Virus record (IMG/VR): IMGVR_UViG_3300025372_000013
DNA: 35,468 nt
From: an uncultured virus (IMG/VR IMGVR_UViG_3300025372_000013)
Taxonomy: Duplodnaviria > Heunggongvirae > Uroviricota > Caudoviricetes
Strand: one strand, 5' to 3'
Numbering within the stretch: the stretch's first letter is position 1; each line of letters starts with the position of its first letter. Both the position numbers and the translations under genes were made by a program. Of this stretch, positions 3,403 to 35,144 are shown in pieces. The notes under the pieces are model-generated. The model was given only the letters and a program-made list of their open reading frames with translations, searched no databases and was not told the DNA's origin.

Positions 3403-4392
3403 TCACCTATTAAACTCTTTAGGGATGTACCCCTCTTTAAATGGCCCGTACTTAAGGTTGATCTTTGTGTACTTGCAAAACCTATCCACTTTTGACTTGT
3501 TAGCTGGGTTAGTTACGTACTTTATCCAATTCTGTTTGATAGAGTCGTAGTATTCCTCGTTAGTCAGCATCTTAGGGTTAGCCCCGCTTACCCTATAGGT
3601 AGGGTGGAGAACGTTCTCTGGAGAAGTGTTGTTCTGAAATAGATGGGAAAGAGGTACCGTCATATTTGGGAACACCAAAGAAAAGCCAGCCTCTAACAAG
3701 CTCATTGTCTGGATAATCTCTTCTTCCCAAAAGATGGTGTCTATATCTAGACCAGTGTTCCCGAAGTAATGCTTGTTAGAGAATACAAACTGAGCATTAA
3801 ATTTAACTGCTGGAACATACAAGTCATCCGATCTGTACTTGTGGGAGTCTGGACCAGCCAATGGCTCATCAGACCATGCTGGGATACCGGTATTGTTCCA
3901 GGTCCTAAAAATCATAATAGGGTACTGAGCAAGCTTGTCGTGCCTTAGAGGGACACGATCTCCATTATCTAGATGCTTAAACCCAGGCAAATAAGCAGTC
4001 ATAATTGTCTTTGGGTTTTTAGTTGCCTCTAACGCACCCTCATACATCTTGATTAGTTTAGTATCCCAATTCTTTTCAAATAAGGTGTGCGAGTCTACTT
4101 GAAGGATGTAGTCTTCCCCATCATACATAGATAGGGCCTGGTCCCTACCAAAACCGATAGAAGGTTCATACTCATCTACCTTAAAGCGCTTAAACTTTAC
4201 TTGTGGGAATTCAAGGAGCTTTTCTATCTTGTCCTTGTAATAAAACTCGTAATCAACTTGTGGGTGGACAGTCTCCATAAGAACAAGACCAATAGTAAGG
4301 TCATCTGGATTAGCGGCACTCTGAATAGCCTCAAATACAGTGAAGGGGAGCTGATTATCGTACATGGTTGGGATAGCAATGTAGATAGACAT
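3403..4392 (-). CDS. Glycosyltransferase, GT60-like (GlcNAc transferase family)
   Basis: N-terminal IYIAIPTMYD; GFGR..A..MYDGEDYILQVDSH..FEKNWD..LI; FWEEE...GF..V.P....LSHL. These match the Skp1-hydroxyproline GlcNAc-transferase (GT60) signature. Confidence 0.8.
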   Translation of the reverse strand: MSIYIAIPTMYDNQLPFTVFEAIQSAANPDDLTIGLVLMETVHPQVDYEFYYKDKIEKLLEFPQVKFKRFKVDEYEPSIGFGRDQALSMYDGEDYILQVDSHTLFEKNWDTKLIKMYEGALEATKNPKTIMTAYLPGFKHLDNGDRVPLRHDKLAQYPIMIFRTWNNTGIPAWSDEPLAGPDSHKYRSDDLYVPAVKFNAQFVFSNKHYFGNTGLDIDTIFWEEEIIQTMSLLEAGFSLVFPNMTVPLSHLFQNNTSPENVLHPTYRVSGANPKMLTNEEYYDSIKQNWIKYVTNPANKSKVDRFCKYTKINLKYGPFKEGYIPKEFNR

Positions 4393-4393
4393 C

Positions 4394-4558
4394 TTAATCC
4401 TCTAGATCTACAAAGGTAGGGTTACTTAAAAATAGCGAGGCTAGTCTGGGGCTATTTACCCCAAAGACTTCAACAATCTCGCCATCTACAACCACACCAA
4501 GACGGATGGTCTTAACTTCAACTACCGCCTCAACAGGCTTATTCTTTTTAAACATCAT
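4394..4558 (-). CDS. Small 'LSNPTF' family protein (54 aa, not in ORF track)
   Basis: MMFKKNKPVEAVVEVKTIRLGVVVDGEIVEVFGVNSPRLASLFLSNPTFVDLED*; ATGA overlap with upstream gene; paralogous to 11675..12010 and 10579..10965. Confidence 0.85.
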   Translation of the reverse strand: MMFKKNKPVEAVVEVKTIRLGVVVDGEIVEVFGVNSPRLASLFLSNPTFVDLED

Positions 4559-5238
4559 GAGTACTCCTTTGGCTTACGCCATAACTTTTTATATACGCCT
4601 GTTGCAGAACGTAGGTAACTACTTCTTTCTACCTGATCTGCCGTTTCAGTGTAGTCTTGAACAGATAACCACTTGTCTCTTTTAATAGGGATTAGTTGTG
4701 CAATAGGGGTACCCGCAGGTATTACTCCAGTCCAACCTTCTCGTATAAAGAATGGCACATTACCCCAACCAGTAAACTCTTCGCTATCAACTATGCCGGA
4801 CATGGTAGTGAACGGCAGATCGAATCTGTTTACGGGATGGGTTAATAATACGCTATAACCCTCAGGAACCTTCCACCCCCATTGACAATTCCATGCTAGG
4901 TGGTTGTGTGCATGCCCGGCAGGACGGGGTATTGTGTGGCCAGTTAAACCTAGTCTCTCTGTTAGTACAGGAAACCCAGTTTCTTCCCAGCTTAGTTTAG
5001 AGCGACCTTCATCATCTAAGGTCACCTCAATATCAACAGGGGTAACCAACATATAGCCAGAAATCATGGCATCAAGAAAAGGTACGCAGACTTTTAAGCC
5101 ATCGTATTTAACGCCGTGCTTATCGTAGTAATGGCGCTCAGCATTTTTATACCAGTCTGGGACTTCGCTCTTTGCAGGTACTGGCGGCCTATGCTCTTTT
5201 TTTACACCAGGGCTAGGTACAAACCTAAAGACCTTCAT
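4555..5238 (-). CDS. DUF6065-like protein, copy 2
   Basis: P.WY...LKVCVPFLDAM.SGY...P.G.S.L.THP.NR.DLPF.T.SG.VDS...IPAGTP..Q.IP.KR; close paralogue of 10965..11657. Confidence 0.65.
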   Translation of the reverse strand: MKVFRFVPSPGVKKEHRPPVPAKSEVPDWYKNAERHYYDKHGVKYDGLKVCVPFLDAMISGYMLVTPVDIEVTLDDEGRSKLSWEETGFPVLTERLGLTGHTIPRPAGHAHNHLAWNCQWGWKVPEGYSVLLTHPVNRFDLPFTTMSGIVDSEEFTGWGNVPFFIREGWTGVIPAGTPIAQLIPIKRDKWLSVQDYTETADQVERSSYLRSATGVYKKLWRKPKEYS

Positions 5239-5257
5239 GCGCTCCTCCGTACAAACT

Positions 5258-6520
5258 TTATCCAGTAATTGTAGCCGTAAAGTAACCTATGCTATTTCCC
5301 TGAGCTTGAGCTGAGGTTGTTAGAATTATACCAGTCTTTGTAGCCGTAGGAGAACTGCCCAATGTGGTGGTTGCGGTACCCACGCTAGTGGTTTGAGCAT
5401 TGTCGCTAAAAGCAGTGGCGGTTACCGAACTTCCGCTAACTACAACCTTTAGTGAAGATAGTAGGCCGCTTAAGGTAGTAGAGGCCAAGGTAGAGACTGT
5501 TCCAGCAACTGATTGGTAAATATTAAGTAGATATGTAGTATTAGTGAGAGTGCCAGTCGCAGTAGCAGTGTATGTAGAAGGCACGGAATAGCTGCCTGTT
5601 GAAGAGTATGTACCAGAATAGTACGGAGAATAGTTTGTGTAGGAACCTAGTGAACTGTAGGAAGTATATGTTTGGTAGCTGTATGGGCTGCTGATGTCTC
5701 CCTGATTAGGAGACCCTACAACATATGAGCTGTAAGTAGGTTGTACATATGTGCTGTAAGAACCGTAGTTAATTAGATAACGAGTAGATCCCTGGTAGTT
5801 TAATCCACCATTGTAGGTAGCGTATGGTGCGCCGTACCCATTTGCAACATAGAATGAATAAGTTCCATGATCCCAATATCCGGCAGTAACATATTGATAC
5901 CGGGTAGAGTAGACATATGCTCCATCCCAAGAGTAATTGGTTCCTGATACATATTGGCCGGTAGGTTGATATACGTTGAAATAAAAATAGGTAGTTCCGC
6001 TGGCATAGTATCCAAGTGGAGTTCCAGAAGTATATGGGGTGCTGTATGTGTAGGGAGCTGTGTATGTGTATGGTGCTGTGTATCCATATGAATATGAATA
6101 GTATGTATCGTTTTCAAGTCCCACAGCAGCAAGCCAGTTATTAGCATCAGTAACTAAAAAGGCAATACCACTACCTAGGCTTACGTCAGCAGCAGTAGCG
6201 GTTATGTTTGGGTTACCCATATCTGTAGTAGATAGGGTGTTGTTTGAAGGAGAATCAGAAGTTACTGCTTTTCCTGTAGCAGCAGCCCAGGTTCCCTTAA
6301 GAGAGGTCCAAAGACCTCCGCTTGAAGAGGTTCCTAGATATGGCCCACCACGATTAAAAGTATCTGAAAATGATCCAGTAAACCATTGGTGCCAGACACC
6401 ACCAATTTTAATCCAACCTGAGGTTACAGAGTGCCAGCTTTGAATACCGCCGGTTGTAACCTTAGTTAGTAAACTACCAGCTGTACGCCAAACCCCGCCT
6501 ACTTTGACTTGACCACTCAT
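5258..6520 (-). CDS. Putative fibre-tip/adhesin protein with Tyr-rich insert
   Basis: N-terminal K[VI]GGVW repeats; FSDTFNR-type beta-sandwich; ~190-aa Tyr/Ser/Thr/Gly insert; paralogue of 12022..13803. Confidence 0.7.
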   Translation of the reverse strand: MSGQVKVGGVWRTAGSLLTKVTTGGIQSWHSVTSGWIKIGGVWHQWFTGSFSDTFNRGGPYLGTSSSGGLWTSLKGTWAAATGKAVTSDSPSNNTLSTTDMGNPNITATAADVSLGSGIAFLVTDANNWLAAVGLENDTYYSYSYGYTAPYTYTAPYTYSTPYTSGTPLGYYASGTTYFYFNVYQPTGQYVSGTNYSWDGAYVYSTRYQYVTAGYWDHGTYSFYVANGYGAPYATYNGGLNYQGSTRYLINYGSYSTYVQPTYSSYVVGSPNQGDISSPYSYQTYTSYSSLGSYTNYSPYYSGTYSSTGSYSVPSTYTATATGTLTNTTYLLNIYQSVAGTVSTLASTTLSGLLSSLKVVVSGSSVTATAFSDNAQTTSVGTATTTLGSSPTATKTGIILTTSAQAQGNSIGYFTATITG

Positions 6521-7452
6521 TATACATACACCAACCAGACGTCTCCTTCATTGCCTTGTCCAGATGTTGGGGTAGTTGTGCTAACCCACATATTTCGAAC
6601 TACGTTAGAAGATGCGGTAACTGTTGAAGCAGTTGTGACTGATCCGTTAGTCTGAGAAACATAAGAAGTAATAGGAGTCTGCCAAGAAGGTAGACCTCCC
6701 ACAACCGTAAGAACTTGACCAGAAGATCCAATACCCAACCTTGTGTTTCCACTGTTGTATGTAAGTAGGTCTCCGTTTGTTGTTAGGGTGTTGGTAGGAA
6801 GATAAGAAGGCAGGTTGGACCAAGTTGGGATACCCCCAGAAACGGTCAGATACTGGCCTGTAGAGCCAATACCTATGCGACCTACAGTAGATGACCCTGT
6901 GCCGTAGATAAGGTCTCCAGAGGCCGTCACAGTCGAAAGAGGCACCTTTGTATTTGCTAGGGCACCGACTGATGTAACGCTGCTGAGAATGGAGTTATAT
7001 TCTGAGCTACCCACATAAAGGACGTTGCTTCCGCTAACCTGAGGAAGGCCCTGGTAGTTTAGGGTAAAGCCAGGCGTGTTAAGAAGATTGTTAGTTCCTG
7101 TGCCGGTAGTCAATGTGAGCCCTACACCACCAGATGTGCTGGTAGTGATGGTGCTGCCGCCAGTCTTAAATACGTAAGGAGCAACTGATACGCCGTAGAT
7201 CAAACCGTTTTCGATATTGGCAAGACGTTGAGCTAATGTATTCCAAGAGGTGGTTGCTGTACTAAACGCTGTAGACGAGGTGAAGTTGGAGACAAGCACG
7301 CCGCCAGCAAAGCCGTCAGAAGGAACTCCAAGCCCTGTTTCAAGAGCTCTGACTTCTTGCTGCAGAGAGTTTACGTCGTTGGCTACAACAGTATCCTGAA
7401 GATCTACACGGGCTGTATAGGGATAAACTGCATTAGGAAAACCGGTTGTCAT
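6520..7452 (-). CDS. Fibre protein
   Basis: N-terminal V.ANDVNSLQ.EV.ALE anchor; two GDL......RIGIGS.GQ.LTV.GG.P.W repeats; C-terminal TP....EGDVW motif. Confidence 0.7.
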   Translation of the reverse strand: MTTGFPNAVYPYTARVDLQDTVVANDVNSLQQEVRALETGLGVPSDGFAGGVLVSNFTSSTAFSTATTSWNTLAQRLANIENGLIYGVSVAPYVFKTGGSTITTSTSGGVGLTLTTGTGTNNLLNTPGFTLNYQGLPQVSGSNVLYVGSSEYNSILSSVTSVGALANTKVPLSTVTASGDLIYGTGSSTVGRIGIGSTGQYLTVSGGIPTWSNLPSYLPTNTLTTNGDLLTYNSGNTRLGIGSSGQVLTVVGGLPSWQTPITSYVSQTNGSVTTASTVTASSNVVRNMWVSTTTPTSGQGNEGDVWLVYV

Positions 7453-7478
7453 CTAGACTCCTTCACTTAATGCCCACC

Positions 7479-7507
7479 ACGATACCTGAAAACTACAAAA
7501 TTGTCTG
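7479..7507 (-). promoter_or_regulatory. Putative sigma70/SigA-type promoter
   Basis: CAGACA-N17-TATCGT upstream of the AAGGAG RBS of 7452. Confidence 0.5.
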
Positions 7508-7508
7508 C

Positions 7509-7943
7509 CTAGCCAACCAGGTACTTGGTGCAGACCCCGTAGATACCCTCAAAGATACTTAAATCTGTAGGCTCAGTAAGTACCACTATTGACTTGTTTG
7601 TCAAAGCCCTACCAGGGTAAGTCCAGATATAGCCATTGCTGGTCAGGGTATGGTCATCATTTTGGTGCCAGAAGAACCTGGCATCTGGGATGTTGTTAGA
7701 GAAGTATCCTAGGGCCTCAATGTTCTTACAGTGGAACCATGCCTTATCTTTGATGGCGTTTATGAACTCCTCATCAATCTCATAGAACGGCTCATCGTGC
7801 CCTAAGAACATACCTTCCGGATTCATCCAGACATCAACCTCTACGTCATAGCCTTGGGCAATAGCAGAGACTACGTCAACGGGATTGTTCTCCCCGTCCT
7901 TGTTTTCTCCCCTAATCAAACCTCTATGGGCAATCTTAATCAT
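7509..7943 (-). CDS. Short glycerophosphodiester-phosphodiesterase-like protein
   Basis: IAHRG...EN...GYDVEVDV...LGHD...HCKN motifs of the PLC-like/GDPD fold. Confidence 0.75.
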   Translation of the reverse strand: MIKIAHRGLIRGENKDGENNPVDVVSAIAQGYDVEVDVWMNPEGMFLGHDEPFYEIDEEFINAIKDKAWFHCKNIEALGYFSNNIPDARFFWHQNDDHTLTSNGYIWTYPGRALTNKSIVVLTEPTDLSIFEGIYGVCTKYLVG

Positions 7944-9297
7944 TGTTACTCCTAAGGTAGTTGTTTAGATCCTCTGGAGTTCCCACTCCCCACATCTTAT
8001 TAACATGCATAGCATATACACGCTTCCCATCATTAATAGCTTCATTAAATACTGGGGCGGTATAGAACTCTCCGTTAACTGTGATGTTCTTTTCCATCAT
8101 CTGCTCAGCGTACTTAACAAAGTCTGAGCCATGCTTCCAATAGTAAATGCCCACAGTTGCATGATTGCTAATAGGCTTCTTCTCAGCAACTTCTAAAACA
8201 AGGCCTGTATCAGATGCGATTCTTGCATAAGACCACTTAGGGTGGGTAGAGGTGAATGTTGCAATGCCGGCATCAGCATTCTTTACGTTCATATGATACA
8301 TAAAGTCTCTGCTGTCCCAGTCAACGATTTGATCTGAGTTAGCTATGATCAGAGGCTCATCATTATTAATAAGCTCTCTTGCAAGTAAACAGGTCTGGGC
8401 CGCACCGCCTGTAAGCACTGGGGTGCTGATCAAATGGCATCCAGGGGTGATCTTGTCTAGCATGAACATCAAGTTGTATTTTTCTACATGCTCCTGCATA
8501 GAAACATAGATGTAGTTTGCCTCTATACCAAGGCTCTCTACTACACGCTCGATCATAGGCTTACCGTTAACTTCAATAAGAGGTTTAGGGAAGCTATAGC
8601 CAGCATCCGCAAAACGACTCCCTAGTCCTGCCATTGGGATCAAAACATTCATCTTCTTATCCCTAAATGAAGAGGCTTTAGATAGGTGCTCTAGAGCAAG
8701 ATCAATCTTTTCTTTAGTAAGATCTTCCCTATTCTTAATCTCAATAAGATGAGCCCCACTATCCCTAGCAGCAAGTTTTCCAACAAAGCTGTCTTCAAAG
8801 ATAACAACATTTGTTGGAACAGTCTTGAAATAGTTCATGATAGACCAATACATTTCTGGGTGGGGCTTAGAGTTTGCAACTCCGCCATTAGATATGGCTA
8901 CATCCACGTATGGAAGTATCCCCAACTTATCTAAACAGGTCTCTACAGTCTTGGAAATACTGTTACTGGCAACGCCGATGCCAATGCCCTTTGATGCAAT
9001 GTACTTAAAGTGCTCTACAAGATCCCTATCTTCTACTACGTTCTCAAACATCTCTGCAGTGTACTTTTGCTTAAGTTCCCAAATCACTGGGTGCAGCTCT
9101 TGAACAAGCCCCTTACTCTCAGAGAGAATAAACAGCTTCTCCTTAGTAGGCAACCCCTCATATATATTCTTGTGGTCAAAAGTACTAATTACAAGCTCAG
9201 GAGAAACATCTTCCAACGCCATATTCAGAGCGGTAAAATGAATGTCCTTGCTGTCAATCAAGACCCCATCAAGATCAAAGATTATAACTTTTTTCAT
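7936..9297 (-). CDS. HAD phosphatase fused to nucleotidyltransferase (GT-A, BcbE-like)
   Basis: FDLDGVL, SNS, KPHP and FEDS HAD motifs, then LIPMAGLGSRF...PKPLI, NSDQ, EK, GEFY, GTPEDL. Start at 9297 from the ATGA overlap. Confidence 0.88.
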   Translation of the reverse strand: MKKVIIFDLDGVLIDSKDIHFTALNMALEDVSPELVISTFDHKNIYEGLPTKEKLFILSESKGLVQELHPVIWELKQKYTAEMFENVVEDRDLVEHFKYIASKGIGIGVASNSISKTVETCLDKLGILPYVDVAISNGGVANSKPHPEMYWSIMNYFKTVPTNVVIFEDSFVGKLAARDSGAHLIEIKNREDLTKEKIDLALEHLSKASSFRDKKMNVLIPMAGLGSRFADAGYSFPKPLIEVNGKPMIERVVESLGIEANYIYVSMQEHVEKYNLMFMLDKITPGCHLISTPVLTGGAAQTCLLARELINNDEPLIIANSDQIVDWDSRDFMYHMNVKNADAGIATFTSTHPKWSYARIASDTGLVLEVAEKKPISNHATVGIYYWKHGSDFVKYAEQMMEKNITVNGEFYTAPVFNEAINDGKRVYAMHVNKMWGVGTPEDLNNYLRSNND

Positions 9298-10301
9298 GCT
9301 GATAACCACGCTTTCAAGAAAGGATCGTTTTCAATGGTACTAATTACCTCATCCGAACTCCTATTTAGATTAGGAATAGAGACGTAGCGGTGACCCAGTC
9401 TTGCGGCCATTAAGTGATAGAAGTGGTGCATCTCTTCTGTGCCTACAGAGGCAGGCTCAGTAACACCGTTACCAACACTAGTAAAAGCAATAAGCGGAGT
9501 AGTCAGCTCAAGCACGGCAGACCCAGGCGGCATAAATGCAGCGTTTACAAGACCAGAGCTAGTTGTTGATGCTACCAACTTAGCCTTGCTAAAGTAGCTG
9601 ATCTGTGATTCAAAGGTCTTAAATTCATCGGGGGCTACAATCTCAAACCCTAAAGATGCAAAGTAGTTTTCTACCTTGCCTTCATCATCCATGCGGTCAT
9701 CATCCTCATATGGAAGCCGCCCTTTGATCAGAGCTTTAAGGGACCTGCCCTTGTAATTCTTTCTAGTTAGGTAAACTTTCTTACCATCTGCCACGTTTAC
9801 ATCCGGGGTAATGAACTGCTTAGACATTTCGTGGATCTTTGGCCAAGGGTTGTTTACCTCATACGACTCTACTAACAAGTCTCTAAAATAAAGGTTATTG
9901 ATGTTGAACTTATTTATGACCCTAAGATCTACCGGCGCATAATCTACGCCGTTCTTATTAAGGAACTTAAAGAAGTTCTGAATGTAGGTTGGAAGCGGAT
10001 CTCTATCTACAACCCCAGTGATATCAATAATAAACAGGGCATCTGGAGTTAAAGCGTATTGAGCTAAAAACTCACCTAGATCTTCATGCATAAAGTGGTA
10101 GAAAGATGCCCCCAGGTAGACAAATACCTTCATCTGGTCTGAGATAAAGTCTTTTACATGCTTCTCTTTCTTTCCAAACTTTGGGTGAACTTGAAACATG
10201 TTGATATTGTTGCCTGCAACCAGACCTACTTCCTCTGGAGCAAAGCGGTAAGACGTTTGATATGACGTATGATTGAGCGTAGTGGTGCTAGTAGACTTCA
10301 T
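9294..10301 (-). CDS. Glycosyltransferase, GT61 (DUF563)-like
   Basis: YHF..E; KVYLTR; GFEIV.P...FESQI..F..A..V....SGLVN..FM.PG..VLEL. Confidence 0.8.
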   Translation of the reverse strand: MKSTSTTTLNHTSYQTSYRFAPEEVGLVAGNNINMFQVHPKFGKKEKHVKDFISDQMKVFVYLGASFYHFMHEDLGEFLAQYALTPDALFIIDITGVVDRDPLPTYIQNFFKFLNKNGVDYAPVDLRVINKFNINNLYFRDLLVESYEVNNPWPKIHEMSKQFITPDVNVADGKKVYLTRKNYKGRSLKALIKGRLPYEDDDRMDDEGKVENYFASLGFEIVAPDEFKTFESQISYFSKAKLVASTTSSGLVNAAFMPPGSAVLELTTPLIAFTSVGNGVTEPASVGTEEMHHFYHLMAARLGHRYVSIPNLNRSSDEVISTIENDPFLKAWLSA

Positions 10302-10303
10302 TG

Positions 10304-10579
10304 TTATCCCTCGATTATTTTAGTTAAATCATCCTCTGTCAGTTCCCTATCAAAAGGGAGGTCTGGAGTTACCCACTTGTTTAGCGGGCACCTGGCATCT
10401 TGAAGCTTAACTTTAGCATTCATTATGCATCCGCATTCACGGCACTGGTGGGTTAGCTTTATGAAGCGCTCACAACCTTTGCAGGTTTTAAGCCTATTCT
10501 CAGCAATAGCTGGGAGAGCACGCTCCATATTTTTGTTCAGCATATCCCACGGTTTTACTTCCCTAGGGGTATCTGACAT
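10304..10579 (-). CDS. Small Cys-rich protein (DUF6171-like)
   Basis: RLKTCKGC...QCRECGC....K......CPLNKW. Confidence 0.65.
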   Translation of the reverse strand: MSDTPREVKPWDMLNKNMERALPAIAENRLKTCKGCERFIKLTHQCRECGCIMNAKVKLQDARCPLNKWVTPDLPFDRELTEDDLTKIIEG

Positions 10580-10965
10580 TATTGTGATCCCCGCCTTGTA
10601 ACTCCGTGGATGCTAAATGGTTCAAACTTGCCATCTTTATGGACAGATCCAACAGGAGGGCGTGGGTCTCCATCATTAATCTTAACAAATGACGGTCCCT
10701 TTAAAAGAAGTTCGCTAAAACCCTTTTGAACGTTCATAACATCTACTACGATACCATCTAAAACGATAGCTAAGGATACGACTTCTACTCCGGCAGGAGG
10801 CTCGTTTACCGCACATTCTGGGCCATGAACATGTTCTGCCGGGGCATGCTGATGATCATGGTCATGTTTTTTAGCTGCACGCTTTCCCTTTAAGTACTTA
10901 ACAAACTCTTTAGTACTCATAGGCTTTACTTCTGGAACATCGTAGTTCCTAATAACCTTATCCAT
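10579..10965 (-). CDS. 'LSNPTF'-family paralogue with His-rich segment
   Basis: LAIVLDGIVVDVM...LLLKGPSFVKI aligns to the other two paralogues; contains HDHDHQH..HVHGPEC. Confidence 0.7.
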   Translation of the reverse strand: MDKVIRNYDVPEVKPMSTKEFVKYLKGKRAAKKHDHDHQHAPAEHVHGPECAVNEPPAGVEVVSLAIVLDGIVVDVMNVQKGFSELLLKGPSFVKINDGDPRPPVGSVHKDGKFEPFSIHGVTRRGSQ

Positions 10966-11657
10966 TACTCGTAATCCTTCTTAACCCACTCGACGTTTTT
11001 ATACTTATACTGCTCAACACGTACGTTTACAGACTTAACTCTTCCAAGAGCAGTCAAACCAACATCTACAAAAGATCTCCATGAAGCTCTTTTAACGGGT
11101 ATGATTTGTACAAAGGGTGTGCCAGCAGGAATAGTACCTGTCCAGCCCTCCCTTATATGAAAAGGAATGTTGCCATTAGTAAAGAATTTGTCGCTGTCAA
11201 TAGTAGCAGACATGGTTCTAAATGGAAGATCGCTTCTGTTAAATGGGTGGGTAACAATAGTGCTCCAACCACGTGGTGTTTTCCAACCCCACTTAGAAGC
11301 CCAAATTAAATGGTTCTTGCTGTGACCGGCAGGCACAGGGATTGTGGCTCCAAGAGCACTAGGGCGCTCACCAACAAAGCCTTGCCATGCATCTGGCCCA
11401 TCCCACCTTATATTCATTTTTCCGTCTTCATCACGGGTGACGTGGATGTCAAAAGGTGTAAGGAGAAAATACCCGCCGATCATCACATCAATAAAGGGCT
11501 TGCAGGTCTTTAAGCCCGCATTGTTATTCCCGTTTTCATCAACCCAGTGATACTCGCCATCTCTATACCATTGAGGTACGTGCTTTTTACACGGCTCTGG
11601 TTCAAGAAGCATGAGCTCTTTATCTTCAATTTCTGGAACAAATCGTATTACTTTCAT
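10965..11657 (-). CDS. DUF6065-like protein, copy 1
   Basis: VPQWY...GLKTCKPFIDVM.GGY...THPFNR.DLPF...IPAGTPFVQIIPVKR. Confidence 0.65.
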   Translation of the reverse strand: MKVIRFVPEIEDKELMLLEPEPCKKHVPQWYRDGEYHWVDENGNNNAGLKTCKPFIDVMIGGYFLLTPFDIHVTRDEDGKMNIRWDGPDAWQGFVGERPSALGATIPVPAGHSKNHLIWASKWGWKTPRGWSTIVTHPFNRSDLPFRTMSATIDSDKFFTNGNIPFHIREGWTGTIPAGTPFVQIIPVKRASWRSFVDVGLTALGRVKSVNVRVEQYKYKNVEWVKKDYE

Positions 11658-11674
11658 AGTCGCCCTCCCGAATA

Positions 11675-12010
11675 CTATGCTTGTGGTGCTGAATCTACCG
11701 ATGGTGTTGCGGGTGCCTCTTGTGGGGTAGGCGCTACTGGCGCAGCGTTTTGTGGGTTTGCAGGAATAGCATCAACGGCAGGCGGTGGTGTGAAAGCCCC
11801 GTCAGTGTATAAAAATCCTGGGTCAACATAAAGTGTCTTAGGGATTTGAATAAATGTAGGGTTTGAAAGGTAGCGTGCTGCGTCTGTGGTATCTAGATTA
11901 AAAACAGTGTGAACAATCCCGTTAATAACCATTGCAACCCTATAACGACCTGATGTCTCAGGTGGTGTTGGCACAACAAGGGGTGGAACTGGTAGCAAAT
12001 CGTCAGCCAT
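11675..12010 (-). CDS. 'LSNPTF'-family protein with Pro/Ala-rich tails
   Basis: VAMVINGIVHTVF...ARYLSNPTFIQI...G..Y..G.F.PP; AAGGAG RBS; directly follows the tip gene (possible fibre chaperone). Confidence 0.7.
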   Translation of the reverse strand: MADDLLPVPPLVVPTPPETSGRYRVAMVINGIVHTVFNLDTTDAARYLSNPTFIQIPKTLYVDPGFLYTDGAFTPPPAVDAIPANPQNAAPVAPTPQEAPATPSVDSAPQA

Positions 12011-12021: not shown

Positions 12022-13803
12022 TTAGTTTGACTGGGAATTGAAGTCGTCTAGTTGATTACCCTGTACGTAATCGGAAGGTCCTAGTACGATTCCAAACTTA
12101 GTGGCTATTGTAGCACTTGTCGCTGTATATGTGAGGTCGGAACCTATTTGGCTAGTTAGGGCCGTATCCTGATAAGGACGTACGGTAATGACCTTTGTAG
12201 CCGCATTGGTTATTACCTTAAAAGCCGCAGCCAACTGGGATAGGCTCCAACGGGTGATCTCTGAAACTACGTTGCTTGAAGACTGTATAAGGCGAATATA
12301 TCCAGGGAAACAGGTCTGGCAGTTACATGAGGTGTAGCCATATTGAGGGGAAGAGCAATATGGGGCGTAGGTGGCGTAGTAAACGGTACATACTGGGCCA
12401 TAGTAGTTATTAGTAAAAGAGTTGCAGTTAGGGCCAGAATAGCTTGAAATACCGTAGTTGGCGTTTGGTCCAGAGTAGCTGCTTGCTCCATAGCCATTGC
12501 AGCTAGGTCCAGAGTAGGAGGTAGCTCCATATCCATTACAGTTTGGTCCGGTGTAGTTGGATAGGCTGTATACCTGTTGAACTCCATAGCCCGAGACGCC
12601 GTATGAGCTACAAGTAGAGCCTGCATAAGATACGCAGTAGGAGCCTGAAACACCGTAGCCTGCACAGCTGTAATAGGTGCTATAGGCCAAGCAGCCAGAA
12701 ACATATGCTGTACATGGGTGAGAAGTGCTATAGCCTGTACATGGGTGGGAAACAATGTAGTAGTTTCCGCCTTTGTAGTAGGAGTTTCCGTAGCCTACAC
12801 AGGAGTAGGAGGTTCCATAGCTTCCACAAGCTCCTGAATAGTATGCGCTACAGGATCCTCCAGAAGAGTAGCCACCGGTACATCCATAGTTGTTACCGTA
12901 GGCTACACATTGTGGAGAATAAGAAGCACATGCGTAGGTGGTGTAGTATGCGTAGTTTGTACTATAGACTGCTGAGTAGGAGTAGCCTCCAGTACAGCCG
13001 TATCCTGCTACAGAGTACGAATATCCTCCGGTACATCCGTATCCAGATACAGCATATGAATAGCTTACAACTCCATAGTTGGTTGCATAAGAGTAGCCAC
13101 CGGTACATGATGCACTGCTGTAGTAGGCGTAGTTTCCGCAATAAGTTCCGGTTACATATGGGGTATACGCAGCACAAGCATAGGTTGCGCAGGTGGAGCA
13201 GTTACAGGAAGTATTGGTTGAACGACCGTAAGTTACTCCCCACCAGTTGCCTGAGTCAGTAACCCACATAGCAACACCAGCACCACCATCGTTATTGCGG
13301 GTGGCAACGTTAGTAATGCTACCTGTAGTTGGGGCTGAAGAGGCCTGAACCTCAAGAGTGATCTGGCTAGAGCTATCTACCGAAACAATCTGAATATCAG
13401 TATCTGTTCCAAGAGATCCAGTTCCAGGTGTAGCTGAGATCCATTGACCTGCGCCAAGACCTGCTGTGGAGCTAAGTCCGGTAACAACAACGGTGTATCC
13501 ACTAGTTGTTGGGGTTACGGTTGAGATTGTTCCAGAAGCAGAGAATACAAAGGTAGAACCCACAGAAATTGAAGAGGTATTGCTTTTGGAGGTCATGTTT
13601 ACGTCAGCAAGTGGGTATGAAGAAGCTGCTGTAGATGTGGTAGCTGAATAACCGTTAGCTGTCCAAACGCCTTGCTCTGCGTGCCATGCTCCGCCTGAGC
13701 TAGAGGTTCCTAGTGAGCCTGATGTACTCCTATTGAAGTTATCCGAAAAGGAGGCAAAAGCCGTTTGGATAAAGTTCATTAACCCTTGAAAAATACCAGA
13801 CAT
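12022..13803 (-). CDS. Putative fibre-tip/adhesin protein with Cys/Tyr ladder insert
   Basis: FSDNFNR..LGTSSSGG.W and WVTDSGNWW scaffold shared with 5258..6520; a 299-aa insert holds all 28 Cys. Confidence 0.75.
   Translation of the reverse strand: MSGIFQGLMNFIQTAFASFSDNFNRSTSGSLGTSSSGGAWHAEQGVWTANGYSATTSTAASSYPLADVNMTSKSNTSSISVGSTFVFSASGTISTVTPTTSGYTVVVTGLSSTAGLGAGQWISATPGTGSLGTDTDIQIVSVDSSSQITLEVQASSAPTTGSITNVATRNNDGGAGVAMWVTDSGNWWGVTYGRSTNTSCNCSTCATYACAAYTPYVTGTYCGNYAYYSSASCTGGYSYATNYGVVSYSYAVSGYGCTGGYSYSVAGYGCTGGYSYSAVYSTNYAYYTTYACASYSPQCVAYGNNYGCTGGYSSGGSCSAYYSGACGSYGTSYSCVGYGNSYYKGGNYYIVSHPCTGYSTSHPCTAYVSGCLAYSTYYSCAGYGVSGSYCVSYAGSTCSSYGVSGYGVQQVYSLSNYTGPNCNGYGATSYSGPSCNGYGASSYSGPNANYGISSYSGPNCNSFTNNYYGPVCTVYYATYAPYCSSPQYGYTSCNCQTCFPGYIRLIQSSSNVVSEITRWSLSQLAAAFKVITNAATKVITVRPYQDTALTSQIGSDLTYTATSATIATKFGIVLGPSDYVQGNQLDDFNSQSN
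12310..13206 (-). repeat. Mirror-symmetric Cys/Tyr repeat region (protein level)
   Basis: CTGGYS repeats in the first half and Y[ST]GPx[CA]N repeats in the second half; bounded by TSCNCSTC and TSCNCQTC. Confidence 0.85.
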
Positions 13804-20198: not shown

Positions 20199-21275
20199 TT
20201 AGTTGGTTTCTGCGATAACTACAGACTGATCGGTGATAAGACCGAGACCGTAGATAGCATACCATGCAAGAGCGTGCTCACGACCGAAGTCAAGAATACC
20301 GCCGTCACGAAGCTCAACTGGAAGTGAGATAGCGTGACCGAATGCATTGTCTCCAATGAAGATTGCTGAGTAGCGATCTGCGTTACCGTTACCGGTAGCT
20401 GTTACTGGAGTTGTGTAACCTCCGCCTGTTGGATACTGGATTGATCCTGGAGCAACAGGTGTGTCAGTTGTGTAGCCAGTACCGGAACCGTTGGTTACCT
20501 TCTGGATCTGGGTTGTCTCAATGAAGACTGTGTCGTAGAGACGACCGATTTCACCGAGCATGAAGTTACCTGGAGCAGCGTACTTTGTTACTTCAATGAA
20601 CTCTGGGAGGTCACGAAGACGACGGCTCTGGTGAGGGTGAACGAAAGCGACGTAGGTCTCGCCCAACCTTGGGATGTTCTTGGTAGCCAAGGTCTCGACA
20701 GCGTCCTTAACGGTACGTGTTGAGAGGTATGAAGCACCGGTGAGAGAAGCACGTGATGTGCCTGCGGTACCGTATGCATACCAGTTGTTGACTGCTGAGA
20801 GGTTTGAACGATCTTCACCGTAGATGACAGAAGATGCTGCCATGAGTGTGTCACGAGCCTGGCCATCAAGGTAGAGAGCCATGTTACGTCCAAGAAGACG
20901 TGAAGCTGATGCCATAACGTCATCGAATGATGCGTTGAGGAGAAGCTCGGATACTGCGATTGCGTAACCTTGCTCAGCAACAGTGATTGAGAACTGCTGT
21001 GCTGTCAATGCGTTTGTTGACATACGGACACCTTCAGTAAGTGTTGAAGCGAATCCGAGGTTGTTGTAACGCATGAAGTTGATCTGGAGACCAGGAGCTA
21101 CGCCGAGTTCTGTCTTCTTGACTGCGAACTGCTCGAAGCGCAAGATAGGCATTGACTGGAATAGAATTTCCTTAGACCAGATGGTCTGAATTGCTTGTGT
21201 AAGCTGGCTGTTAGCGCCAGAATACGCTGTTGGGGCAGCGGCGAGATTACCGGTACCTGTTACGGCTGATGCCAT
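20199..21275 (-). CDS. Major capsid protein (N4-gp56-like, HK97 fold)
   Basis: F.RY..L....LTEG; EQG.AI.VS; YVAFVHPHQ...L; GEIGRL....FIET; follows portal and scaffold; strong codon bias. Confidence 0.92.
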   Translation of the reverse strand: MASAVTGTGNLAAAPTAYSGANSQLTQAIQTIWSKEILFQSMPILRFEQFAVKKTELGVAPGLQINFMRYNNLGFASTLTEGVRMSTNALTAQQFSITVAEQGYAIAVSELLLNASFDDVMASASRLLGRNMALYLDGQARDTLMAASSVIYGEDRSNLSAVNNWYAYGTAGTSRASLTGASYLSTRTVKDAVETLATKNIPRLGETYVAFVHPHQSRRLRDLPEFIEVTKYAAPGNFMLGEIGRLYDTVFIETTQIQKVTNGSGTGYTTDTPVAPGSIQYPTGGGYTTPVTATGNGNADRYSAIFIGDNAFGHAISLPVELRDGGILDFGREHALAWYAIYGLGLITDQSVVIAETN

Positions 21276-22213: not shown

Positions 22214-23932
22214 TTACTTAGATTCCTCTTCTGAACTAGGACTGTCCTTTTGTCCAGGAGTCTGTCGTCCAGGGAGTTTTGTTCCGTAAGCTTTTGTTAC
22301 AAGCTCTGCTTGCATCTGAGCTAACGTTTGTTCCTCAAACGGGGTGATAACTCCAGGTTGTCCTAGAGGTCCCGGTCCCGTACCGTCTGCTGGTGCAGCA
22401 CCAGGAGGAAGACTTCCATCCGGCATCATACCAGTTAATGAGGTAATTGCTGACTGGATCTGCTGCTTAACGAGGCTAAGGGCTCCATCGGCCTTAGCAT
22501 CATTAATAAGCTCCGCACGAATTTCCTCAAGCTTTTCGTCAGGGAATTCCTCACCAAGTTGACGTAGAGCACCTTCACGAGACTCAAGGTTCATAGCCAT
22601 CTTTGTCTGGATTTCCTGAAGCGTAATCAGCTTATCTAGAGGAAGTGGAGGTGGGAAGTGGACCACAGACTCATAGGTTAGGGAGTCTGAAATATCCAAT
22701 AGAGGTAGTTGTCCCTCTTTAATAGGGCCGTTTACATCAGGATTGTAGGCAAATACCTCAGGCTCTTTAAATGCCAAGGTAAGAAGTACTAACTCATTGA
22801 TCCTACGAAGGCCTTCTGAGTACTGAACAATCTTCTGGTGGTAGCGGTTCATAAGAGGCTGGTACTGAATAGCCAATGCAACACCCGAAGTGTTGGAAAT
22901 AGGCTGTACCTGGCCAAGAGCTGTCTCCGGTACGCCAACCATTTCATGCATGGCAGACTTAACAACCTTTAGGTACTCAAGAGCTCCCTGCAGGCCAGCT
23001 CCGCCGCCTTCTAGGTTCTCTACACGAGCATCCTTTGGAAGACCGCCCCACACCTTCTTAGGGCCCTTTTCAAGGGCTGAAGCCTTAGCTCCAATAATTA
23101 CCGTTACAGGTGCAGCATGGTAGTTGACAATATCCGCAATATCCGTAGCCACTTCATTATAGTTACGGTTTAGGACGATAAGATCATGGCAATCAGATAG
23201 TCCCCATGGAGAGCCAGAGACTCTTACATTGGGGATATGAATGATCGGTACGACTCCAATAGGATTAGGGCGAGAATCAATAAGCTCATCATTGATGTAC
23301 TCCTCAATACGATCATCAGTCAAAATTTCTGTATAGGTGTAGACCTGGCGAGTACCTTCAATAGATGTGCCCCAGAAACGATACTTGAGCTTAAAGCGAA
23401 TCAAGCGTGAGCGATCATGTGGGTGAAACTCAGGGAAACAGAAAGAAGAGTTAAGTGGAAGAATACGAACTTTACCTGGATGTGGTCGGCCAATAGAATC
23501 TACAAAGGCTTCTTCATAAGCTACTTTAACAAAGCAGTCTCCTGACACGCCGCCTTGTTGGCCCATCTCCCAAAGAGTTCCGTGCTTATCATTATCAATT
23601 TCCCACACACGCTTTAGGATGTCTGGAACGATTGCCTCTGTTGCTTGAGGGCTTCTGAATGATACGCCACGGCTAAAACAAAAGTTAACGATGTAGTCTG
23701 TAAACGCACGATAATAGTTATATACCATCTGCGACTCGCCTACTTCACGGCGGTACGACCAGTGATGGCCGAGATACATTGCCCAGTTAAGAGAATACCG
23801 GTTTAAACGTGGACCGTGTACTTCAAACTCTTCATCAGCAAGTTCTACAAGACCAAGAGGAGAAATCGAAATGGTTAAGTCTGACGACGCCGCCCTATAG
23901 GACGGAGGTGAAAAGTCAACACCACCACTCAT
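22214..23932 (-). CDS. Portal protein (SPP1 gp6-like)
   Basis: YNY......D; GDCFVKV; NPIGVVPIIH.PN......WG.SD; NTSGVAL.I.YQPL; lies between terminase and scaffold. Confidence 0.9.
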   Translation of the reverse strand: MSGGVDFSPPSYRAASSDLTISISPLGLVELADEEFEVHGPRLNRYSLNWAMYLGHHWSYRREVGESQMVYNYYRAFTDYIVNFCFSRGVSFRSPQATEAIVPDILKRVWEIDNDKHGTLWEMGQQGGVSGDCFVKVAYEEAFVDSIGRPHPGKVRILPLNSSFCFPEFHPHDRSRLIRFKLKYRFWGTSIEGTRQVYTYTEILTDDRIEEYINDELIDSRPNPIGVVPIIHIPNVRVSGSPWGLSDCHDLIVLNRNYNEVATDIADIVNYHAAPVTVIIGAKASALEKGPKKVWGGLPKDARVENLEGGGAGLQGALEYLKVVKSAMHEMVGVPETALGQVQPISNTSGVALAIQYQPLMNRYHQKIVQYSEGLRRINELVLLTLAFKEPEVFAYNPDVNGPIKEGQLPLLDISDSLTYESVVHFPPPLPLDKLITLQEIQTKMAMNLESREGALRQLGEEFPDEKLEEIRAELINDAKADGALSLVKQQIQSAITSLTGMMPDGSLPPGAAPADGTGPGPLGQPGVITPFEEQTLAQMQAELVTKAYGTKLPGRQTPGQKDSPSSEEESK

Positions 23933-24528: not shown

Positions 24529-26100
24529 TTAGAAGAAAGGACTAGAACTCACTTCTACACTAGGCATAACCATATCCTGTGTTAAAGAACAGGCTAATGC
24601 TAGAGAATCCACAAAATCATCGTGAGCATGCACTTCGTCAGGGGCAGCCACTAAGAAGTTAGGACCCTTATACTGCACCTCAGCATCCGTCATCTGTTGG
24701 TAGAACTTCTTCCAGATACGAAGGCGACGAGTCTTTGCGTGAGCAGGCCAAGATACCATTTGACGTTGGATAAGGGCCTGAAGGTGCTTCCAGCGCTTAG
24801 ATTGCTCGGTGGGGCTAGAAGTAACCGGTACGACTTCTGCACGAGGCATAAGAATCTTTAGGCGTCCGGCCACTGCATCACCTACACCGTTGGCGTCTAC
24901 TCCAATAGCAAGAACGTCATAGTTGCTCAAAAACTGTTGAATCTGAAAATACTGATCTTCCCAGTCATCTCCCTGTAGCTCTAACCAATTGAGCACTCTA
25001 TGATCATAGTATCCGTACTCATCTGGACGATCCCAGTCTACCCAGACTACTGTGACCACTGTGCTGTCCATCTTACGGGCCGGGTCAACACCGACCACAA
25101 CTGGTGAACGGTGCCAGGATTTAACAATTTCTTGGGAGGTATCACCGAGATCATCCATAATGCTAGATGTAACGAACATACCACGCTCAAGTAGCCACTT
25201 GCAGTTATATGCCATTTGGAACTCATCAGAGTCCTCACCGATACGAAGCATTTCTTTTCTAATGTACTTATCGTAGTTAGGTTGGATCTTAGCTACGTCT
25301 TTCCAGTCCCACTGAAAATGGTTTTGTTTGGCATTACGTCCATGTGTTTGACGACGCTTATTAAGCTGAATAGAACGGTAAAAACCATTCTTAGAAGTTG
25401 TAGGTGTACCGGTCTTAACCATGGTAGCGTTGTAGTACGCACCCATAGGCGCAATTGACTTTGATACTACAAAGTCATCAGCTTCTTGGCACTCATCCAC
25501 AATAATTAGGTGAAATGACTTAGATTCAATCTTAGCTCTTGGGTTGGCAGTCATCATCATGAGAGTGCTGCCAGACTTCTTAAGTTTAAGGTTACGCACA
25601 ACGCCAGGAGTTTTAGTTGGCATATCATCAATCTCTGGGTCGCCAAAGACTTCCATAGCTCTTTCAGAGGTAAGTCGGGACACTGTGCGAGAATAAAGGG
25701 TTTCAACCTGGTTTTGAGTAGGTGCAAACATACCTACCCAGATACCATCGCCAAACTTTCCAAGTAGCTCGGGATACATTCTGGCTAAGCGAGGGAGAAT
25801 AACCATAAGTGTGGCCACTGTGTTGGCGATGGTCTCTGACTTTCCTGACTGACGTGAAGCCAGTGCAGTGATCTCTTCACCATCGTTGATGAGAACTGAT
25901 TCAATAACCCTGCGAGCTAGGGGTTCTTGATATGGGTGCAAGTTGTGCCCAACAAGCATCTCCATAAATTGCATGATTTTTTCTATGAGAACCTTTACAA
26001 ACTCTTTAGAGAGCTCATCCAGCTCATCAGGCACTTCATCTTCAGGAAGGGGATTAAATTCCTCATCCTCTGGAAGATCTACCTCATCAAATTCGCTCAC
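24529..26100 (-). CDS. terL: Terminase large subunit
   Basis: PYQ Q-motif; Walker A SRQSGKS; Walker B LIIVDECQ; GTP coupling motif; nuclease GVDPA, VDANGVG, HDDFVDS. Confidence 0.95.
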   Translation of the reverse strand: MSEFDEVDLPEDEEFNPLPEDEVPDELDELSKEFVKVLIEKIMQFMEMLVGHNLHPYQEPLARRVIESVLINDGEEITALASRQSGKSETIANTVATLMVILPRLARMYPELLGKFGDGIWVGMFAPTQNQVETLYSRTVSRLTSERAMEVFGDPEIDDMPTKTPGVVRNLKLKKSGSTLMMMTANPRAKIESKSFHLIIVDECQEADDFVVSKSIAPMGAYYNATMVKTGTPTTSKNGFYRSIQLNKRRQTHGRNAKQNHFQWDWKDVAKIQPNYDKYIRKEMLRIGEDSDEFQMAYNCKWLLERGMFVTSSIMDDLGDTSQEIVKSWHRSPVVVGVDPARKMDSTVVTVVWVDWDRPDEYGYYDHRVLNWLELQGDDWEDQYFQIQQFLSNYDVLAIGVDANGVGDAVAGRLKILMPRAEVVPVTSSPTEQSKRWKHLQALIQRQMVSWPAHAKTRRLRIWKKFYQQMTDAEVQYKGPNFLVAAPDEVHAHDDFVDSLALACSLTQDMVMPSVEVSSSPFF

Positions 26101-27380: not shown

Positions 27381-27902
27381 GTGAATATAAATGACAAAAG
27401 GAATTATCTAATCCTTGGGCTTGTAGCCCTTCTATCCTGCGGAAACCTAATAGCCCTGCCAGCCAAGGCGGCAGCGCCAGTGATAGAAAGATGCCTAACC
27501 CCACTAGGCGAGTACAGTTTAGCCAAAAAACTCAACCCAAAGCAGCTTTACCAAGTATTGCAGTTTGCCGGGTTTAAAGGCCATTCCCTTAAGGTGGCTT
27601 GGGCTATCGCCATGAAAGAAACTCATGGAAATCCTATAGCTCATAATTTTAGTAACAAGACTCAAGATGATTCCTACGGAGTCTTCCAGATTAACCTTTA
27701 CGGGGCTTTAAAGGGCCGTATAAAGGAGTTTGGTCTTAAGTCGGCTAAAGAGTTAACCAATCCTATTTTAAACGCTAAGATCGCCTACAGAATGAGTTCT
27801 GGGGGTACTGATTGGTCACCTTGGCATGCTAATCCAGGAGAGCGAGATCACTGGTTAGTTCAGCAGTGGATTAAGCTCTGCCCTCAGATATTGAGGGCTT
27901 AA
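27381..27902 (+). CDS. Secreted lysozyme-like / lytic transglycosylase
   Basis: Signal-peptide-like N-terminus (…PAKA); AIAMKET.GNP.A catalytic Glu; SYGVFQIN; NP..NAKIAY...W.PW. Confidence 0.85.
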   Translation: MNINDKRNYLILGLVALLSCGNLIALPAKAAAPVIERCLTPLGEYSLAKKLNPKQLYQVLQFAGFKGHSLKVAWAIAMKETHGNPIAHNFSNKTQDDSYGVFQINLYGALKGRIKEFGLKSAKELTNPILNAKIAYRMSSGGTDWSPWHANPGERDHWLVQQWIKLCPQILRA

Positions 27903-34577: not shown

Positions 34578-35144
34578 TTAAGCTTCTTGTACGTAAGTGT
34601 GAATTTCTCCGCCAGAATATATGTCATGTTTGATAGCAGCTTCTATGGCTCTCTTTAAAGCCTTCTCTGCTACCTCAGGAGATGTTATTTTTTGATAGTT
34701 CTGTATCTCTAAAGCACCTACGGCAATATCTCCGCCGCTGCCGGAATAGTAAATGTTGCGGGCTTCTCTGTCCCAGCTGTAGTCATTGAAGATTGGGTAA
34801 ATAACACCACGTACACATACTAGGAGATTAGAGTCATGCCAGGCAGCATCCCCATCTTCCTTACCTTCATACCCGGCATCCTGAAATGCCTTACGAAGTT
34901 GAGGGATAAACTTATTCGTCATAAAGAGATCTAAGTTCTCGTTTGCACGTGGCTTAGGAGGTTTCCACCCAAACTGGGCAATATTTCCACCACGGGATGC
35001 TCCAGAGACTGCAATAAGGACTCCATTGTTCTCTACAATCTTATGAGTAGCAAGATCCATGTAGCGACCGCCCTCGTCAGAGGCACGTGAGTCACATCCA
35101 ATAACGGCCCAACCATCACCTTGTATTGCGGCAAGTGTAGTCAT
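34578..35144 (-). CDS. Proteasome beta-subunit/HslV-like Ntn-hydrolase protease
   Basis: N-terminal M-TT, DSRAS, KI, SGSGG..A.GAL, D.YSGG. Confidence 0.88.
   Translation of the reverse strand: MTTLAAIQGDGWAVIGCDSRASDEGGRYMDLATHKIVENNGVLIAVSGASRGGNIAQFGWKPPKPRANENLDLFMTNKFIPQLRKAFQDAGYEGKEDGDAAWHDSNLLVCVRGVIYPIFNDYSWDREARNIYYSGSGGDIAVGALEIQNYQKITSPEVAEKALKRAIEAAIKHDIYSGGEIHTYVQEA

Follow-up and report, generated by a model that had tools for sequence, protein, structure and literature searches.

Theta-defensins, protegrins, and tachyplesins are cationic hairpin peptides of about 18 residues, with two to three disulfide rungs lying 2 or 4 residues apart. The antifreeze protein (AFP) of Tenebrio molitor is a disulfide-braced beta-solenoid whose Cys/Thr/Ser/Gly-rich repeats carry one disulfide each and build a thin rigid rod. 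Here, we describe a 593-amino-acid (aa) protein, P0001, encoded in a 35,468-nucleotide (nt) stretch of DNA (the window) from an uncultured virus of the Caudoviricetes (IMG/VR record IMGVR_UViG_3300025372_000013). The protein carries a cysteine (Cys)-rich insert of 299 residues, which is predicted to fold back on itself in the manner of the hairpin peptides, with facing Cys joined by nested, ladder-like bridges. The insert differs from these peptides, with which it has no sequence relationship, in its length, in the number of rungs (14, and 5–23 in relatives), in its single Lys, in irregular and often odd spacings, and in being embedded in a long phage protein. With the T. molitor AFP it shares short Cys-rich tandem repeats; unlike that protein, in which the repeats run one way with local bridges and translational symmetry, its pattern is mirrored and its halves have different motifs.

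A second comparison is offered by the stalk and knob of the bovine ultralong third heavy-chain complementarity-determining region (CDR-H3), a long two-stranded projection from a beta-sandwich loop (PMC5994613). According to the accessible part of that source, the projection is likewise rich in Tyr, Ser, Gly, and Cys, has an even number of Cys and a variable length, and serves binding; however, it reaches up to about 70 residues, and its disulfides lie in the terminal knob, with none in the stalk. In P0001, the Cys are distributed along the whole stalk, a short turn serves as the tip, and the scaffold is lectin-like rather than immunoglobulin-like. The third comparison concerns phage receptor-binding domains of the lectin and carbohydrate-binding module (CBM) type (9n6a, 8zdo, 5ly8, and 4qnl). 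The scaffold of P0001 superposes on them and its gene also lies among tail and fibre genes; however, no sequence-family match relates it to these domains, none of which is described with a long Cys-laddered insert. As a precedent for disulfides in phage tails, those of the freshwater phage Pam3 were verified by mass spectrometry, according to the available part of PMC9942802. Tentaclins were also considered and rejected as an unrelated C-type-lectin plus immunoglobulin family, as described in the accessible text of PMC10743442. The cystine-ladder hairpin principle, the sandwich-loop stalk, and phage tail disulfides are already known. Among the titles and abstracts listed by a full-text literature search, with subscription journals outside its coverage, there was no description of a Cys-laddered phage stalk, that is, of a ladder of 5–23 rungs with up to about 175 residues per arm in a phage lectin-like protein that evolves through paired repeats. 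The original prediction for this DNA, made from the sequence alone, had likewise not recognized the insert as a described phage appendage.

We propose, with a probability of about 0.7, that P0001 is associated with the virion of a myophage of actinobacterial type and serves in host adsorption, carrying a fold-back, two-armed, disulfide-pinned stalk. The two-arm topology of the insert is highly likely and is directly supported by the matching of the arms and by paired indels and Cys losses in relatives. Judging from the Cys pattern, the disulfides across the arms would probably be formed.

Cysteine pattern of P0001 and its relatives

All 28 Cys of P0001 are located within residues 200–498, which correspond exactly to positions 12310..13206 of the window. 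They comprise a first half (residues 200, 202, 205, 210, 222, 233, 257, 270, 292, 299, 308, 318, 326, and 335) and a second half (355, 364, 371, 380, 390, 398, 422, 435, 460, 472, 483, 493, 495, and 498), and the pair sums C_i + C_(29-i), from the outermost pair inward, are 698, 697, 698, 693, 694, 693, 692, 692, 690, 689, 688, 689, 690, and 690. Tyr accounts for 62 of the 299 residues (21%), followed by Ser (52), Gly (46), Cys (28), Thr (26), Ala (25), and Pro (11), and the only Asp, Glu, Lys, or Arg is K344 within the YYKGGNYY motif. Of the 28 Cys, 17 begin a C-x-x-Y motif and 7 a C-x-x-x-Y motif, and 22 have one or the other. These data reproduced the features listed in the original prediction, namely the same Cys positions with a 14+14 split, sums of 688–694 for the inner 11 pairs, about one-fifth Tyr, most Cys in the two Cys-Tyr motifs, the Lys at the turn as the sole charged residue, and the end motifs TSCNCSTC and TSCNCQTC. 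The permutation test that it had recommended was also carried out. Among 5000 uniform placements and 5000 shuffled orders of the observed spacings, not one was as symmetric as P0001, and the mirrored-spacing distance was matched by none of 2000 spacing shuffles; this distance was 16 for mirrored versus 42 for direct comparison of the halves. No inverted repeat in the DNA was found as a source of the symmetry, the only one present being a single 16-nt pair.

A word-indexed search yielded 77 metagenomic relatives of P0001. At 50% identity, the relatives formed 257 clusters with E ≤ 0.001, including 106 with E ≤ 1e-10, and the ladder family was represented by 126 stretches in the viral contig collection. 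No Pfam family matched P0001 at E ≤ 0.1 and no PHROG family at E ≤ 0.01, and a tblastn search against 50,697 deposited phage genomes gave no match. Distant relatives aligned only to residues 1–80, 165–205, and 490–593, of which residues 499–593 were the best-conserved stretch. Since these alignments leave out the Cys-rich part, that part represents a variable-length insert in a conserved scaffold.

Cys statistics were calculated for 203 relatives of at least 250 aa, and 178 of these were used in the spacing tests. The Cys count was even in 193 of the 203 and odd in 10, and 8 of the latter carried one isolated Cys far outside the insert. Counts of 4–46 Cys were observed, and in 77 relatives the stretch bearing them covered 83–346 residues. 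The symmetry was thus retained over an approximately fourfold range of insert length, in line with the expectation of the original prediction for homologues. All pair sums agreed within 8 in 120 of the 193 relatives with six or more Cys. In 159 of 178 relatives, the mirrored spacings gave the closer fit, in 12 the direct ones did, and 7 were ties; the spacing-shuffle test gave p ≤ 0.01 in 110 and p ≤ 0.05 in 132 of the 178. The arm lengths were correlated with r = 0.95 (183 proteins), but a longer insert lengthens both halves, which makes this value partly circular; the valid tests of symmetry were therefore the spacing shuffles and the comparison of mirrored with direct spacings. An attempt to rescue less symmetric relatives, in which 52 of 73 became symmetric after one or two Cys were dropped or the ladder was split, was rejected because it involved too many free choices. 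Among even counts of at least six, 88 were multiples of four and 95 were not. As multiples of four were no commoner, the Cys appear to be paired across the arms rather than arranged in tetrads or paired within an arm.

Indels between close relatives were all located within the insert, where the identity was also lowest. The closest relative, P0002, is 83% identical to P0001 in the insert versus 93–100% in the flanks. It lacks residues 267–279 and 416–428 (13 residues each), the mirror image of the first segment being 413–425. P0004 lacks residues 265–287 (23 residues) and 405–428 (24 residues), and P0005 lacks 251–264 together with 434–447 and 271–281 together with 402–413. Cys losses followed the same pattern: P0002 lost the ladder partners C270 and C422; P0003-type proteins lost the pairs C257/C435 and C335/C355, with 4 of 5 lost Cys having a lost partner; P0005 lost C257/C435, C270/C422, and C308/C380, which account for 6 of its 8 lost Cys; and P0004 lost four Cys, two of them with a lost partner. 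The Cys total remained even in all four. The original prediction had called for a search of homologues for paired indels and paired Cys changes; both were found to be mirror-paired, and nothing contradicting the predicted pairing was seen. The separate 39-base-pair (bp) tandem array in each arm (Table 1) gives a simple route for the gain and loss of units, and only versions with matched arms were seen among the relatives. Judging from these alignments, no other part of the protein changes as fast as the stalk, which fits an element in contact with the host.

The two arms carry different repeat motifs, yet in equal numbers. In both, read from N to C, aromatic residues around Cys peak at position −2 (26% and 26%) and at position +3 (46% and 34%) and are least frequent at +2 and −3. 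When the arms are aligned antiparallel, position −2 lies opposite +2 and position +3 opposite −3; the aromatic peaks therefore face aromatic-poor positions, which sets large residues against small. In the same way, TSCNCSTC and TSCNCQTC, the motifs at the base, are copied directly rather than mirrored, and they also form a direct repeat in the DNA (13190-13212 versus 12311-12333). The arm motifs are thus best described, at the level of the sequence, as a two-fold rotational pseudo-symmetry (local dyad), as an antiparallel pair requires. Accordingly, the mirror symmetry of the original prediction holds for the Cys spacings, whereas the sequence motifs run in the same N-to-C direction on both arms.

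A repeat running in one direction, either a beta-solenoid or a series of knotted modules with local disulfides, would turn the mirror symmetry into a by-product of repetition. Such a fold is suggested by the tandem repeats within each arm, and the shuffle test is weak for strictly periodic ladders (e.g., p = 0.045 in P0067). It is nevertheless hardly credible, as it is irregular spacings that are mirrored, in P0001 and in the 159 relatives mentioned above; the motifs differ between the arms and are always equal in number; the indels are mirror-paired; and the half-counts of Cys are odd and even equally often, although pairing within an arm would allow only even ones.

Ladders with a period of 5 are present in many relatives. 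The arms of relatives also carry pairs of motifs, such as C-N-A-x-Q versus C-S-A-S-I or C-T-G-Y-G versus C-G-T-S-T. Among relatives such as P0053 and P0065, some build each arm by repeating the base motif C-N-C-x-T-C, with three Cys per unit, and others have 9-residue units in which C-x-C on one arm is matched by C-x-x-C on the other. The design of the rungs thus appears to be modular and to differ between subfamilies. Two relatives have Pro/Phe/Gly-rich inserts with a different motif in each half and only the base Cys. Members with no Cys or with base Cys only were P0143, P0156, P0160, P0198, P0213, P0216, P0218, P0052, and P0083. The existence of such inserts suggests that the two-armed insert is older or broader than the disulfide ladder, and it seems able to exist without one.

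Scaffold of the insert and predicted structure

In the AlphaFold2 model (109-sequence alignment), residues 1–219 and 477–593 formed an all-beta sandwich, mostly with a predicted local distance difference test (pLDDT) score above 90. At the base of the insert, strands 203–210 and 486–493 were paired in one chain with pLDDT of about 90. Thus, the flanks were modelled as the beta-sandwich from which the original prediction had the insert project, the insert leaving it as two paired strands. W180 and W187 were invariant among the 109 aligned sequences, and C202, C495, and T497 were nearly so. The extra all-beta domain at residues 85–165 is confined to the P0001 subfamily, and relatives of 300–400 aa do not have it.

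Structural comparison of the sandwich with VIA-align gave the CBM66 structure 4b1m (Z 16.2, 153 aligned residues, root-mean-square deviation 2.8), the baseplate of mycobacteriophage Douge (8zdo, Z 16.1), the receptor-binding domain of TM4 gp23 (9n6a, Z 15.7), CBM2 of the phage J-1 Dit protein (5ly8, Z 11.7), G7C gp63.1 (4qnl, Z 10.3), and the tailspike of cyanopodophage Pan3 (Z 9.9). Many lectin, GH16, and LamG-type chains also matched at Z 10–16. Foldseek placed no PDB entry at E ≤ 0.001; its best matches were 7yl5_B (8.9e-3) and the Douge central fibre (9.4e-3). The VIA-align matches identify the modelled scaffold as a two-sheet jelly-roll beta-sandwich of the concanavalin A-like lectin/glucanase fold, the kind used by phage receptor-binding proteins.

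The same sequence signature could arise if the matching arms came from different subunits of an antiparallel domain-swapped dimer. An antiparallel homodimer demands two-fold sequence symmetry equally, and phage fibres are usually oligomers. However, both flanks were modelled with high pLDDT as one sandwich in which the base strands pair within the chain, a Gly-Gly turn between Tyr pairs lies exactly at the centre, and the segment between the two central Cys (family median 10 residues) suits a turn rather than a linker. A swapped dimer is on these grounds very improbable, and the stalk would be formed by a single chain. A three-copy complex prediction for the 327-aa relative P0044 (46-row alignment) gave an ipSAE of 0.00 in both runs; the controls did not fold, so these values bear on neither a monomer nor an oligomer.

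For P0032, a relative of 436 aa with 16 Cys (40-sequence alignment), AlphaFold2 drew the insert as one long hairpin. Its outgoing strands (218–228, 232–234, and 249–270) are followed by a turn at residues 271–275 and by returning strands at 276–298, 306–308, 312–315, and 319–330, and the turn coincides with the centre of the Cys symmetry (545/2 = 272.5). This model lends weak support to the fold-back topology.

Proposed shape, bridging, and role of the stalk

Several results weigh against the proposed laddered stalk. In P0001, the register shifts by 10 residues between tip and base, and 8 of the 10 paired spacings listed in the original prediction are unequal, seven by one residue and one by two. 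Family-wide, 607 of 978 paired spacings are unequal (371 equal, 342 differing by one), odd Cys spacings outnumber even ones (1122 versus 834), and the pair sums spread over more than 15 in 35 of 193 relatives. In 46 of 178 relatives, the symmetry was not significant at 0.05 against spacing shuffles; most of these have periodic ladders, for which this null is weak. AlphaFold2 gave residues 220–476 of P0001 a pLDDT of 30–40 and drew no secondary structure there, the hairpin of P0032 has a pLDDT of only 39–49, and the ESMFold model of the whole protein in ESM Atlas has a predicted template-modelling (pTM) score of 0.39. The extension of about 47 nm (142 residues × 0.33 nm) is an upper bound, and the true length may be far less. 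In addition, the cytoplasm in which phage proteins are synthesized is reducing, and 7 of the 203 relatives are Cys-free with Tyr/Asn-rich inserts, which implies that disulfides are not essential to the insert.

Cross-strand disulfides in beta-hairpins prefer non-hydrogen-bonded pairs and hence even spacings. A flat ribbon with every bridge at such a pair, all on one face, needs even and equal spacings, and the odd and unequal ones observed would therefore require bulges, alternating faces, or a coiled ribbon. Modelling of 12022..13803, which had been recommended, returned the paired base strands and nothing confident for residues 220–476. An ESM Atlas search with residues 196–502 gave no usable feature match, and its structural rows had a template-modelling (TM) score by query of at most 0.36, on the model with pTM 0.39, and thus carry no meaning. 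Of the single antiparallel beta-ribbon put forward in the original prediction, the two matched arms stand, whereas regular beta strands with even rung spacing were not found: odd spacings predominate and residues 220–476 lack confident strands. We consider a fully extended regular ribbon doubtful.

The same two-arm, cross-bridged topology could also be compact or coiled, giving a short, thick, knobbly stalk of about 10–20 nm instead of a ribbon of about 50 nm. The predominance of odd spacings, the 342 of 978 paired spacings that differ by one, the absence of modelled strands, and the unequal spacings of P0001 itself all point in this direction. Bulging or coiling is further made plausible by the Gly and Pro content of the insert and by the turn-forming TGG and GPN in each 13-residue unit. 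Period-5 ladders, however, leave four residues between rungs, too few to fold back; the low-confidence model of P0032 shows near-continuous strands; and the complementarity of aromatic and small residues at facing positions fits an in-register ribbon. A compact stalk is, on balance, less likely than not.

The Cys might instead remain reduced or bind metal as a thiolate ladder, with the arms matched through metal bridging or packing. Besides the reducing conditions during synthesis, such a ladder is favoured by C-x-C and C-x-x-C motifs that resemble metal sites, present at the base and in part of the relatives. Erv1/ALR was found in none of five related phage records, in a search whose control was also found in none of 14 known genomes, and thioredoxin was found in one of five near-complete related records. 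The absence of a preference for Cys multiples of four (88 versus 95) and the presence on most rungs of one Cys per arm, 5–25 residues from the next, argue against metal sites. Moreover, the virion operates outside the cell, in water containing oxygen, and the available part of PMC9942802 documents disulfides in a phage tail. A thiol or metal ladder is, on balance, improbable.

According to the proposed disulfide-pinned stalk, two adjacent strands of the lectin sandwich would continue outward as the insert. The chain would run out for about 142 residues, turn at YYKGGNYY, and return antiparallel to itself, so that the 14 outgoing Cys would face the 14 returning ones, one to one. The tip Lys is retained in all four close relatives aligned (P0002–P0005). 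The 14 nested cross-arm disulfides would most likely form after release from the reducing cytoplasm, and the product would be a covalently laddered, almost uncharged, Tyr/Ser/Gly-rich stalk, perhaps in beta conformation. Its length would change as repeat units, of 13 residues or 39 bp in P0001, are gained or lost, and only versions with matched arms would persist. Such a stalk may reach into or along the surface layers of the host, with its tip and tyrosine-lined sides in contact.

A bolder version, which we regard as speculative and unlikely, is a single-chain hairpin fibre about 1 nm thick and tens of nm long, held by covalent cross-links rather than by trimerization or a hydrophobic core. 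To our knowledge, its nested disulfide topology would be the deepest in any protein. With 14 nested disulfides, and up to 23 in relatives, it would obtain a ruler-like length from co-expansion of the different repeats of its arms and act as a thin probe that threads the meshwork of the host wall or capsule to a buried receptor.

If the proposed stalk is real, a phage would build a long projection from one chain zipped to itself by a disulfide ladder. The phage fibre folds that we know of (triple beta-helix, beta-spiral, coiled coil, collagen-like, and polyglycine sandwich) all differ from it. It would raise the questions of how 14–23 nested bridges are paired correctly after leaving the reducing cytoplasm, how units are gained and lost jointly in arms with different repeat motifs, and, with regard to host range, whether stalk length follows the thickness of the host envelope. 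The family, which is large, wholly unannotated, and unmodelled by AlphaFold2 and ESMFold, offers a well-defined target for structure determination and might serve as a scaffold for binders that resist proteases and can be programmed in length.

Organization of the ladder gene and its genomic neighbourhood

The gene of P0001 lies in the virion structural module beside fibre genes, as is the case for receptor-binding and fibre-associated proteins. The module has the order terminase, portal, capsid, structural proteins, fibre-like gene, and P0001 (Table 1), and the ATG of P0001 shares one base with the stop codon of the upstream fibre-like gene. Of 79 related viral loci, 33 have a relative of the fibre-like gene next to the ladder gene.

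Table 1. Parts of the ladder gene and neighbouring genes, with their positions in the window
Feature	Position	Strand	Basis or remark
Whole ladder gene (P0001)	12022..13803	-	Open reading frame, 593 aa + stop
Residues 1–84, N-terminal part of predicted lectin-like beta-sandwich, with FSDxFNR and YP motifs	13552..13803	-	AlphaFold2 pLDDT >90 with strands; boundary approximate
Residues 85–165, predicted extra all-beta domain	13309..13551	-	Strands E85-168, high pLDDT (AlphaFold2); boundaries approximate
Residues 166–199, predicted sandwich strands leading to insert, near-invariant W-V-T-D-S-G-N-W-W	13207..13308	-	pLDDT >90
Residues 200–341, outgoing (N) arm, 14 Cys, repeat motif G-Y-G-C-T-G-G-Y-S-Y-S	12781..13206	-	
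Residues 342–349, tip YYKGGNYY, symmetry centre	12757..12780	-	
Residues 350–498, returning (C) arm, 14 Cys, repeat motif S-Y-S-G-P-N-C-N-G-Y-G	12310..12756	-	
Base motif TSCNCSTC, residues 198–205, outgoing arm	13189..13212	-	
Base motif TSCNCQTC, residues 491–498, returning arm	12310..12333	-	
39-bp tandem array, 13-residue units of outgoing arm	12974..13064		2.3 copies, 78% matches; one unit (residues 267–279) missing from P0002
39-bp tandem array, 13-residue units of returning arm	12467..12556		2.3 copies, 80% matches; one unit (residues 416–428) missing from P0002
Residues 499–593 + stop, C-terminal part of predicted lectin-like beta-sandwich	12022..12309	-	pLDDT 96–98
871-aa Ser/Thr/Gly-rich fibre-like protein, upstream of P0001	13803..16418	-	PHROG virion structural and tail fibre families
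111-aa Pro-rich protein, downstream neighbour	11675-12010	-	36/79 related loci
230-aa DUF6065-like protein	10965-11657	-	phrog_7084; Atlas features and structure; 54/79 related loci
GT61 glycosyltransferase	9294-10301	-	
Fused HAD hydrolase and nucleotidyl-transferase	7936-9309	-	
Second DUF6065-like protein	4555-5238	-	
PF11397 GlcNAc-transferase	3403-4392	-	24/79 related loci
Major capsid protein	20199-21275		
Portal	22214-23932		
Large terminase	24529-26100		
SLT-type lysozyme-like protein	27381-27902	+	
PASTA-domain protein	33545-34507	-	
Proteasome/HslV-like peptidase	34578-35144	-	

The ladder gene is followed by a cassette, and the order of the locus is fibre-like protein, ladder protein, 111-aa protein, DUF6065-like protein, 128-aa protein, second DUF6065-like protein, and PF11397 GlcNAc-transferase. 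The order and strand of the cassette were always the same across the 79 related viral loci; here, it spans 3403-12010 on the minus strand. The DUF6065-like neighbour had no sequence relative in PDB at E < 0.7 and no further Pfam match at E ≤ 10, and no description of it was found in the full-text literature search. The downstream cassette proteins might help the stalk to fold, as chaperones, or might modify it enzymatically.

The capsid protein is 72–74% and the terminase 51–52% identical to those of the ~113-kb Streptomyces myophages BRock and LuckySocke, the nearest isolates, and the virus is a relative of Streptomyces myophages of ~100 kb. No homologue of P0001 was found in either phage, and the syntenic gp84 and gp85 of LuckySocke showed no similarity (E ≥ 1).

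A sugar-handling island lies inside the structural module and comprises the GT61 glycosyltransferase, the fused HAD hydrolase and nucleotidyl-transferase, and the GlcNAc-transferase. This island points to glycosylation of the Ser/Thr-rich fibre proteins or of the stalk. Elsewhere in the window, a proteasome/HslV-like peptidase, a PASTA-domain protein, and an SLT-type lysozyme-like protein are encoded. The fibre-like protein holds a segment of about 35 residues twice (G-T-S-S-Q-F-V-K-G-D-G-S-L-D-S-S-T-Y-L-T-T-G-T-A-A-S-T-Y-S-P-I-A-G-S), at residues ~276–312 and ~688–724, about 410 residues apart.

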